Source: Escherichia phage E26. From it: a DNA stretch of 64,000 nt. The position numbers and the translations under genes are program-made. The notes beneath the pieces are model-generated. The model saw only the letters and a list, made by a program, of their open reading frames with translations. It ran no database searches and was not told where the DNA came from. The stretch's first letter is position 1. The number at the start of each line of letters is the position of its first letter. Positions 36,741 through 38,633 of the stretch are shown piece after piece. The stretch lies in sequence record MN655998.1. One strand, given 5' to 3'.

Positions 36741-37043
36741 TCATATATCAAGCGTATTTTCTGGAGTATCGCCGAAAACTCTATTAACGAGATCCGCCAA
36801 TACTTCACCGTGGCATTTCTTAGGGTAGCAAGTACAACCTAAGCGCATATGTCTTAATACTTCTAAATGCGCTCGTGTTATCTCACCATTTCGAATCTTA
36901 TTATACAACCACTCTTTGTATAATGCAATAGCTTTCTCGCGTCCGTATTCTTTGGCGGTGTATGGATTTCCCCACATAGTACCACGCTGAATATTAACAT
37001 CAAAATCGCTATTGTACTTGTTTACAACGCGGCATATTTTCAT
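36741..37043 (-). CDS. DUF4326-like protein with C-terminal ...ENTLDI tail
   Basis: WGNPYT ... LGCTCYPKKCHGEVL pattern; C-terminal motif shared with gp33-like protein. Confidence 0.4.
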   Translation of the reverse strand: MKICRVVNKYNSDFDVNIQRGTMWGNPYTAKEYGREKAIALYKEWLYNKIRNGEITRAHLEVLRHMRLGCTCYPKKCHGEVLADLVNRVFGDTPENTLDI

Positions 37044-37078
37044 TTGATACTCCTGGCGGGGATTTCTCCCCGCCTTTG

Positions 37079-38299
37079 TTAGACTGCCATTTGAGCGGTG
37101 ATCGCTGGATGGCTTTGATAGTTGTGAATTTTAAAGTCTTTCGGAGTTTTTGTCAATACCTCCTCTAAAGATTTAAATTCCGGCAACTCAATTGTTGGTT
37201 TATCAAACGGAACACGGTTTAATTGCTCCATAACTTGATCAAAATGGTTTTTGTAAATGTGAGTATCTCCACCAGAGAAAATCAGTTCTCCTACCTCAAG
37301 ATCACACATTTTCGCTATGATGTGAGTTAACAGCGCATAGCTGGCGACGTTAAAGGGCAAGCCCAAAAAGCTGTCTACGCTTCGCTGAAACCACATACAA
37401 GACAGTTTACCTTCATTGACGTAGAATTGCACGAAAGGATGACATACACCTAATACAGCATTATGTGTTCCTTGTACGTTCCATGAGTCAATAATGATCC
37501 GGCGATCCGTTGGATTGTTTTTAATTTGTTCAATCACGTTTTGTAACTGGTCTTCCCAAATCTTCGGGCGATAGACATATTCTTCATCGTCTTTAGTGCT
37601 TGATGTGTCTACGTCCATACTAACAAACATCGTGGTATCCGGTGCTAAAATGTCGCCACCCAGATAATCACTATCAAGCAGATAATCGAAATAACCACTA
37701 TCTACCCATTCCTGGAATCCCCACAAGCAATATGCATCATTAACAAAATTAGATTGAGTCTTCCAGTGGTCTGCTACCAGAATACAATCAAACTCTTCAT
37801 AAATCATACCACGCCAGATAGCACATAAACGGTCTTCTGTTTCATTGGTTGGCGTAAAGTCTTCTACCCACGGGTGTTTAAATGTATGTGTATATTTGCT
37901 CTTAACACGCTTAATTTTGATCTCACCGTGTGGATGAATCGGTTTGCGTCGCCATGCCATGCCATACATATTCCCAACATTATAACCATTGAATCGCAAA
38001 GGATTCTTTTCTTTCATATCAAGACAGTTGCCGCGCCAAATGTCGAAGGCTTCTTCGTCAAACTTACCGCGTGTAATTTCCTGTAAGCGACGGCGGTCAA
38101 GTGATCCCTCCATAAACCATAGCAATTCGCCAATTACAGAGGCTGTAGCCATCTTTTTAGTGGTAAGTAAGGGGAAACCCTTGCTTAAGTCAATTCGCAT
38201 TTCTGTACCGAATTTAGAGAGCGTACCTACCCCAGTTCGGTCGTCACGAGGCCAACCATTATCAAGAACATCACGCAATAGTTTCAAATATTCTTTCAT
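37079..38299 (-). CDS. td: thymidylate synthase with ~110-aa internal insertion
   Basis: ThyA motifs DDRTGVGT, ELLWF, PTDRRIIIDSWN, CHPFVQFYV, DSFLGLPFNVASYALL; uninterrupted 406-aa ORF. Confidence 0.8.
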   Translation of the reverse strand: MKEYLKLLRDVLDNGWPRDDRTGVGTLSKFGTEMRIDLSKGFPLLTTKKMATASVIGELLWFMEGSLDRRRLQEITRGKFDEEAFDIWRGNCLDMKEKNPLRFNGYNVGNMYGMAWRRKPIHPHGEIKIKRVKSKYTHTFKHPWVEDFTPTNETEDRLCAIWRGMIYEEFDCILVADHWKTQSNFVNDAYCLWGFQEWVDSGYFDYLLDSDYLGGDILAPDTTMFVSMDVDTSSTKDDEEYVYRPKIWEDQLQNVIEQIKNNPTDRRIIIDSWNVQGTHNAVLGVCHPFVQFYVNEGKLSCMWFQRSVDSFLGLPFNVASYALLTHIIAKMCDLEVGELIFSGGDTHIYKNHFDQVMEQLNRVPFDKPTIELPEFKSLEEVLTKTPKDFKIHNYQSHPAITAQMAV

Positions 38300-38633
38300 C
38301 CCACATCACCTTTTTCTTGTTGATTGCTTTCTTACGCAGTTTTGCTACTGTCTCGTCAATATCGATAAAGACAACGCCACGGTCGAATACAGTTGCAGGT
38401 CTTGAGATATCGCTATTTTCTTGCACAGGAAGCCATGATGCGCTCGCTTCATCATAGAGATATTGTAAACCGTAATAATCTACGGCTACTGCGTAGTTTT
38501 CACTGGTAGCTGACCATAATTGAATAATACCGACTTTCATTATTGTTCCCGTCCGCAATGTAAGCACCGGACTACCAGCAAACATCAAAGATTCACCACA
38601 ATGTTTGCACTCATAATCTGTCAGAATTTTCAT
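38271..38633 (-). CDS. hypothetical protein (120 aa)
   Basis: ORF track. Confidence 0.4.
   Translation of the reverse strand: MKILTDYECKHCGESLMFAGSPVLTLRTGTIMKVGIIQLWSATSENYAVAVDYYGLQYLYDEASASWLPVQENSDISRPATVFDRGVVFIDIDETVAKLRKKAINKKKVMWDERIFETIA

Follow-up and report, generated by a model that had tools for sequence, protein, structure and literature searches.

The thymidylate synthase of Krischvirus phages probably carries a decayed homing-endonuclease-like domain

The open reading frame (ORF) on the minus strand at positions 37079–38299 of a 64,000-nucleotide stretch of Escherichia phage E26 (MN655998.1; the whole stretch is termed the window here) encodes the thymidylate synthase ThyA/Td of Krischvirus, the RB49/Phi1-like T4-type phages. 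It is probable that this enzyme permanently carries a folded passenger domain, that the domain descends from a homing-endonuclease-like cassette, and that it has decayed to a stub. A preliminary description of the window had recognised the ThyA core and an additional in-frame segment; what it could not see was the origin of that segment in a homing-endonuclease-like module, of which it appears, from the comparisons given below, to be a truncated and inactivated derivative. The td annotation is already known and homing elements in td genes are classical, so it is the origin of the insert and its decayed state that are new. The insert also explains why the td product of RB49-like phages is ~120 amino acids longer than T4 Td.

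A folded domain within thymidylate synthase

The gene was already annotated as td in the RB49, Phi1 and JSE records, the name dating from the RB49 record. The region of the window in which it lies shares 93–97% DNA identity with the genomes of Krischvirus members (RB49, Phi1, JSE, GEC-3S and relatives), and the local gene order in the genus is frd, a small ORF, td and nrdA. The features of the gene, all on the minus strand, are as follows.

37079–38299, minus strand: td/thyA ORF, 406 amino acids plus a TAA stop codon (37079–37081); predicted product 47.4 kDa
37946–38299, minus strand: ThyA N-terminal core, residues 1–118; aligns to E. coli ThyA 1–82 and onward, with invariant columns
37553–37945, minus strand: in-frame insert, residues 119–249 (131 amino acids, 15.6 kDa, isoelectric point (pI) ~4.3–4.7); predicted autonomous alpha/beta domain
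37910–37924, minus strand: N-terminal strand of the insert, EIKIK, residues 126–130; a strand by DSSP, with the flank kept in alignment A3
37619–37843, minus strand: retained endonuclease-like core, residues 153–227, delimited by hhalign and predicted secondary structure
37700–37726, minus strand: motif LWGFQEWVD, specific to ThyA inserts, residues 192–200, within the retained core
37667–37678, minus strand: degenerate signature LDSD, residues 208–211; the family has invariant L-D-K-D, and S replaces K
37553–37579, minus strand: C-terminal strand and linker of the insert, YVYRPKIWE, residues 241–249, kept across insert-bearing ThyAs
37082–37552, minus strand: ThyA C-terminal catalytic core, residues 250–406; aligns to E. 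coli ThyA 110–264, with invariant columns

That all ThyA core motifs are present, as first described, was borne out by a full-length Pfam match: PF00303 (Thymidylat_synt) spans residues 2–406 (E 2.3e-84; 283.1 bits against a cut-off of 24.3), and the NCBIfam model TIGR03284 places the ORF in the ThyA family at 283.7 bits against a cut-off of 108.35. The N-terminal core holds DRTGVGT (R21), E58, W88 and YGMAWRR (Y112, W116, R117), and the C-terminal core holds DRR (R266, R267), C286-H287, R306-S307-D309, N317, H347 and Y349. The catalytic residues among them (R21, E58, Y112 and all those listed for the C-terminal core) stand in invariant or nearly invariant alignment columns; indeed, the equivalents of E. 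coli C146, H147, R21, R126', R127', R166 and N177 are all found, as C286, H287, R21, R266, R267, R306 and N317. As judged from these residues, Td is predicted to be a working thymidylate synthase with an intact active site.

The proposal that the extra residues form a single in-frame insertion was upheld, as the alignment to E. coli ThyA and T4 Td splits into two parts. In the PDB sequence search residues 1–82 of Td correspond to E. coli ThyA 1–82, and residues 250–406 correspond to E. coli ThyA 110–264 and to T4 Td (1tis) 120–286. The insert is one block lying between YGMAWRR (residues 112–118) and DQLQNV (residues 250–255), DQLQNVIEQIKNNPTDRR, at a place where the T4 and E. coli enzymes have a loop of 5–8 residues. 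Its location was thus correctly given at the outset, and its size of ~110–120 amino acids was slightly underestimated, since the block measures 131 (residues 119–249). There is in addition a ~14-residue extension relative to E. coli ThyA at Td residues 79–118, upstream of the insert; it lies outside the insert because insert-less relatives have it too (alignments A1/A2). The insert was found in all 58 matched Krischvirus records, at 88–100% protein identity, and therefore it is no assembly accident but real and fixed in the genus.

The suggestion that the extra residues form an inserted domain is supported by structure prediction. AlphaFold2 models of the whole protein (54-sequence alignment) have a mean predicted local distance difference test (pLDDT) score of 93.6 and a predicted template modelling (pTM) score of 0.91, with blocks of the insert at 81–98; the insert modelled alone (18-sequence alignment) reaches a pLDDT of 90.8 and a pTM of 0.84. 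Because the prediction is confident both for the isolated insert and for the whole protein, the insert is taken to be an autonomous fold. It consists of three to four helices (residues 153–200), short strands and two end strands (residues 126–130 and 241–245). Within the retained core the models place helices at 153–171, 177–189 and 195–200 and strands at 206–209 and 224–227. The EIKIK strand, conserved as xIxIKR in all insert-bearing ThyAs, probably pairs with YVYRP to form a stalk.

A separate question is raised by the report that the DNA of Krischvirus SAP has modified cytosines, that TB34, 99.96% identical to it, does not, and that the genus lacks homologues of hydroxymethyl-dCMP synthase and glucosyltransferase (PMC13390438). 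A role for Td as the dCMP hydroxymethylase behind the SAP modification was set aside, as the specificity residue Asn317 is that of dUMP enzymes; Td is also an unlikely source of the modification given that the SAP and TB34 matches are equally identical to the query insert.

Ancestry of the insert and its decay

A search with full-length Td returned, besides ordinary ThyAs of 276–300 amino acids, proteins of 400–414 (P0001–P0006) and 441 amino acids (P0014) and a long group of 517–613 amino acids (P0007–P0013, P0015–P0017 and P0091). In the alignment P0001–P0017 and P0091 have extra sequence at exactly the insertion point of Td. A word-indexed homologue search with the insert alone gave no match, which reflects a limit of the index, since the full-length search and an exhaustive profile search both worked. 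The latter covered 1.84 billion cluster representatives and gave 12,248 clusters at E ≤ 1e-3 (4,309 at E ≤ 1e-10). The best 150 of the 12,248 clusters were classified: 61 are complete ThyAs whose N- and C-terminal cores flank the module, seven are truncated (partial) ThyAs, 52 are free-standing proteins of ≤320 amino acids, and 30 are longer proteins, mostly with two tandem copies of the module. Among these 150 the gap between the ThyA cores runs from 132 to 378 amino acids with a median of 280, no insert found being shorter than the Krischvirus type.

The long form, found in many other phages, the thyA of Klebsiella phage KP13-7 among them, is ~250–280 amino acids in length and keeps the signature residues of the family described below. 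In alignment A3 the Krischvirus insert corresponds to an insert of ~250 amino acids minus three segments: a beta-rich N-terminal part of ~70 amino acids ending in GVGYLG, a loop RVYNPRxNHxSY, and a C-terminal part of ~45 amino acids (NKxLNGGG...FYS..LQ..RGLSRKA). The flanks KPxxPHG..I.R and YVYRPKIW are common to the main insert-bearing clade (P0001–P0016) and are not found in insert-less ThyAs; the flanks of P0017 and P0091 are recognisable but divergent (ELVKKR, FVWRQRVYI).

Outside ThyA, the long inserts match PHROG families that bear the label 'HNH endonuclease' (phrog_2081, E 1.7e-33; phrog_953, E 1.5e-25; phrog_374, E 1.8e-20). A tblastn search with them reached 1,472 phage records, in most of which the match is a free-standing gene that carries the annotation HNH endonuclease or DNA-binding protein. 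In Klebsiella phage ZX22 one such free-standing gene (XHG74552) separates terL into two halves, and this position within the large terminase gene is a typical homing context. The signature of the family reads W..M..RCY ... W..F.NF..D ... LDKD ... YS..TC.F.....N. The short insert of Td alone matches phrog_2081 weakly (E 0.044), and the profile–profile comparison by hhalign of seven short inserts with 38 free-standing proteins gives a probability of 98.2% (E 3.2e-14) over 97 columns. The short insert is therefore homologous to the free-standing family directly, and not only by way of the long ThyA inserts. On our reading of the alignment, the variable C-terminal tails that free-standing members often have seem to resemble the helix-turn-helix or AP2 modules of homing endonucleases.

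Several searches for a named superfamily were negative. Pfam returned nothing on the short insert, on four long inserts or on eight free-standing or tandem members; NCBIfam returned nothing on five free-standing members, and on P0010 matched thymidylate synthase models only. A PDB sequence search with the profile of the free-standing family gave only spurious matches to WD-repeat designs, and Foldseek against the PDB gave no significant related structure. Foldseek against viral models returned long-insert ThyAs, uncharacterized phage proteins, an I-HmuI-like NUMOD protein and a Bacillus phage 'homing endonuclease'. Column statistics of the family alignment show no conserved histidine; HNH nucleases, with their beta-beta-alpha-metal fold, use a His as general base and Asn/His as metal ligands. 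With 12,248 clusters the family is thus very large and lies outside the coverage of Pfam and NCBIfam. The module also occurs as tandem duplicates in proteins of 330–720 amino acids (P0125–P0139 and others), and one tblastn match, in Bacillus phage Bastille (H149), coincides with a gene whose annotation reads 'dUTPase family protein'; other enzymes of nucleotide metabolism may have in-frame or adjacent copies of the module.

The extent of decay was read from one profile alignment of 52 free-standing modules, 61 long ThyA inserts and seven short inserts, in which the signature positions compare as follows.

R of RCY: free-standing 100%, long inserts 95%, Td insert deleted
C of RCY: free-standing 88%, long inserts 92%, Td insert deleted
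Y of RCY: free-standing 92%, long inserts 90%, Td insert deleted
D-K-D: free-standing 100%, long inserts 95–100%, Td insert D-S-D
Signature Y: free-standing 98%, long inserts 98%, Td insert L
Signature S: free-standing 90%, long inserts 75%, Td insert A
Signature C: free-standing 98%, long inserts 90%, Td insert T
Signature N: free-standing 94%, long inserts 93%, Td insert D

The short inserts retain the hydrophobic core positions only (W, W, F, D, L, G, W, L, T, F), and the N-terminal beta module (F..TG ... GVGY.G) is deleted from the Td insert. The charge has also changed: free-standing modules and long inserts are basic (median pI 8.8–9.0, net charge +5 to +7), whereas the short inserts are acidic (pI 4.3–5.9), the Td insert having a net charge of -14. 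With the signature residues, both flanking modules and the positive charge gone, DNA binding or cutting by the insert is very unlikely, and both nuclease and DNA-binding functions have presumably been lost. The Td insert is best read as a truncated, inactivated fossil of a homing-endonuclease-like module, kept within an active 47-kDa enzyme.

Origin, mobility and competing explanations

The history that would account for these observations begins with an endonuclease cassette, bringing its own two linker strands, entering a phage thyA in frame in the loop after YGxxWR. This loop would lie on the surface of the enzyme, joining the YGxxWR segment to the DQLxxxIxxIKxxPxxRR helix. It is variable across ThyAs, and eukaryotic enzymes have short extra sequence there. 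With so permissive a loop the enzyme could keep its activity while exposing the entire domain at its surface, and splicing would be unnecessary. In many phages the cassette would have remained intact. In the ancestor of Krischvirus and its relatives, once all genomes had the cassette, endonuclease activity would have brought no further gain and the cassette would have decayed, through deletions within it and substitutions, until only the minimum able to fold and to pack against Td was left. The losses would comprise the N-terminal beta module, the RCY loop and the C-terminal helix-turn-helix-like module, together with substitution of the signature K, Y, S, C and N and the shift to acidity. This would be the usual homing cycle of invasion, fixation and degeneration, with shrinkage in place of precise loss, and the stub would now be a structural passenger.

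Evidence for past mobility of the cassette comes from the long form. In neighbour-joining trees built from the N-core, the upstream flank and the C-core of ThyA, Td and P0001–P0016 form one insert-bearing clade, and P0017 and P0091 nest within insert-less ThyAs. The insert-less sample is biased to relatives of the window, and for independent gains of the insert the pair P0017/P0065 alone is relied on. P0017, with a 283-amino-acid insert, and the insert-less P0065 share 80% core identity, and P0065 has a native 27-amino-acid loop exactly at the insert site of P0017. Their loci (L013, L014) are syntenic, with DUF2201, small ORFs, dihydrofolate reductase (DHFR), ThyA and an epimerase, at a DNA identity of 68–80%. 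Such polymorphism at one site is as expected of a homing element. Presence/absence polymorphism at one precise site was found for the long form only; the Krischvirus insert is fixed and inherited vertically, and a 169-kb T4-like metagenomic contig (encoding P0006) has frd, td, DUF4326, nrdA and nrdB in the same arrangement. The ancestral cassette would have spread by homing. More tentatively, and with the balance somewhat against it, the intact forms of 250–280 amino acids, in which the signature is kept across 61 diverse clusters, could be active homing cassettes that have neither intron nor intein and spread by cleaving the empty loop site, the Krischvirus stub being their end stage, possibly re-used by the enzyme. 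If so, they would represent a new kind of mobile element, one that persists as an additional in-frame domain on the surface of a working enzyme.

The insert is under purifying selection that is relaxed relative to the catalytic core. The ratio of nonsynonymous to synonymous substitution rates (dN/dS), pooled over nine Krischvirus td genes, comes to 0.24 in the insert as against 0.13 in the core, and in the most divergent pairs nonsynonymous changes in the insert fall below the neutral expectation (binomial P 4e-4 to 1e-3). Amino-acid-changing codon columns number 19 of 135 in the insert and 8 of 276 in the core, the latter count being made without JSE and LF73P4. The more distant short-insert ThyAs P0003–P0006 are 55–62% identical overall and 37–55% identical in the insert, with 28 invariant positions. 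G+C content of the insert, overall and at third codon positions (GC3), equals that of the rest of the gene, and the insertion is therefore old. The stub, then, is old and kept folded, most likely because misfolding would harm an essential enzyme.

Variation within the genus includes a four-codon indel (SEYN) that makes Td either 406 or 410 amino acids long; it separates the window from L004, L005, L008 and L010 and falls at insert residues ~171–172 (~37784–37789), exactly at the lost RCY loop. In JSE (L011) and LF73P4 (L006) td is 93–100% identical to the window save for a patch of ~350 bp at 61–84%, spanning td codons ~245–360 (37220–37565), which begins at the 3' end of the insert and includes the region of the catalytic Cys. 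The protein encoded by the patch (LSCLFFMRSNDLFLGNPFN) resembles the P0003–P0005 type, which suggests recombination with the td of another insert-bearing phage lineage.

Some of the evidence weighs against descent and decay as set out above. The 'HNH' label of the parent family is annotation only and weakly founded; it is for this reason that the family is termed homing-endonuclease-like here and its superfamily left open. Moreover, a dN/dS below 1, together with a motif confined to ThyA inserts (LWGFQEWVD), could equally mean that the stub has gained a function of its own. The alternatives considered are, in falling order of likelihood, exaptation, residual endonuclease activity and removal by splicing.

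Under exaptation the origin would be the same, and the stub would be kept for a new role in Td, such as docking to a complex for deoxynucleoside triphosphate synthesis, regulation of Td or action as an acidic decoy. The purifying selection on the insert fits this, as do the ~28 positions that are invariant among short inserts diverged to 39% identity. Further, LWGFQE[WFY]VDSGY is common to ThyA inserts where the free-standing family has L.GY..W, the whole-protein pTM suggests that the insert is packed in a fixed manner on the core, and the switch to strong acidity looks directional. The same features would, however, be expected of a domain that merely stays folded and packed on an essential enzyme; the constraint on the insert is several times weaker than on the core, and the four-codon indel, still segregating in the genus, also counts against it. 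Exaptation is on these grounds judged unlikely, though it is the most serious competitor to a passenger domain.

Far less plausible is an insert that remains an active homing endonuclease, or a sequence-specific DNA-binding domain, and that spreads the td allele. Its homology to the homing-endonuclease-like family would favour such activity, and the mosaicism of JSE and LF73P4 td just downstream of the insert is like a co-conversion tract. Against this stand the deletion of the R-C-Y loop, the changes of DKD to DSD, Y to L, S to A, C to T and N to D, the deletion of the N-terminal beta and C-terminal helix-turn-helix-like modules, and the net charge; nor is there an empty target in Krischvirus, because every known member has the insert.

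Least credible of all is excision after transcription or translation, by a group I intron, an intein or translational bypass, which would leave a mature Td of ~32 kDa. In its favour, a group I intron is present in T4 td, and inteins are known from the thymidylate synthases of phages. That the segment is not a T4-style group I intron, as the preliminary description had concluded from its continuous frame, agrees with Rfam, which at its gathering threshold gave no match in the whole 64-kb window. Pfam detected no Hint or intein domain in the Td ORF, nor in the long inserts scanned, and the junctions of the insert, RR|KPIH and KIWE|DQL (K119; E249/D250), have neither the Cys/Ser start nor the His-Asn end followed by Cys/Ser/Thr that protein splicing needs. 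Purifying selection at the codon level indicates that the segment is translated, which counts against its excision, and in the AlphaFold2 models it is a domain joined to the core by two strands. The predicted mass is 47.4 kDa with the insert and 31.8 kDa for the core alone.

Comparison with known systems and neighbouring features

To our knowledge, homing endonucleases have been thought to persist in essential genes only within self-splicing introns or inteins, or else between genes. Among known systems the closest are the free-standing proteins of PHROG 2081, 953 and 374 (e.g. YP_007674036 of Vibrio phage pYD21-A), which are homologous to the insert over the helical core and the two strands that follow, and share their whole architecture and all signature residues with the long ThyA inserts; unlike these free-standing proteins, the Td copy is embedded in an enzyme, is acidic, and lacks the flanking modules, the RCY loop and the signature residues. 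The T4 td intron with I-TevI is likewise a homing-endonuclease element in phage td, a conserved essential gene of nucleotide metabolism, but it consists of a self-splicing RNA and a GIY-YIG enzyme and is never part of the protein, whereas the Krischvirus insert is translated within Td and involves no intron. The T4 intron is also located at a different site in the gene. Phage inteins with an HNH endonuclease resemble the Td insert in placing an endonuclease domain in frame within a conserved phage enzyme; the Td insert differs in having no Hint domain and no splice-junction residues, and it would not be excised.

In fungal mitochondrial rps3 a LAGLIDADG endonuclease is inserted in frame, with neither intron nor intein, to give a fusion protein. 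The rps3 cases involve another endonuclease family, another gene and another domain of life, and the endonuclease is placed close to the end of the gene, not in an enzyme loop. Inserts that leave catalysis intact also occur in the variable region of ThyA, including the 50-amino-acid insert of Lactobacillus casei and short inserts in eukaryotes. These occupy the same variable surface region and are short extensions of the small domain before YGxxWR, whereas the Td insert is a complete foreign domain of probable mobile-element ancestry and lies after YGxxWR. The literature searched contained no description of an extra domain in Td, of an endonuclease-derived domain in frame within ThyA with neither intron nor intein, or of a series from intact to relic forms.

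A textbook enzyme thus appears to tolerate a whole endonuclease-like domain, and a single alignment spans the range from intact cassette to shrunken relic, providing a natural experiment on the amount of foreign protein that a ThyA loop can carry. The long forms are candidate site-specific nucleases, the target of which would be a conserved thyA sequence.

The surroundings of td in the window show some further variation. A 100-amino-acid DUF4326 ORF ('NrdA.1'; Pfam E 6.5e-23) lies on the minus strand at 36741–37043, between nrdA and td. It is found in the window, the Makalu phages, SSG23, LF73P4 and a distant T4-like contig (L012), and not in Phi1, RB49, JSE and G2248; this patchy distribution indicates a ~280-bp indel within the genus. 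A GC-rich hairpin at 37055–37078, GGCGGGGA-TTTC-TCCCCGCC followed by TTTG on the plus strand, lies between the td stop codon and the ribosome-binding site of the DUF4326 ORF, and the Makalu records annotate a terminator there on the strand opposite td. On the other side of td, at ~38569–38570 within the minus-strand ORF 38271–38633, a single C is present in the window that Makalu001, SSG23, Phi1 and RB49 lack. In those four phages a 30-amino-acid ORF (MKILTDYECKHCGESLMFAGSRCLHCGREQ, with CxxC...CxxC) and an 89-amino-acid ORF overlap at TAATG, which holds the end of the first and the start of the second. The additional C, which could be a genuine mutation or an error in sequencing, shifts the frame in the window, with the result that the second CxxC is lost and the two ORFs become one of 120 amino acids.

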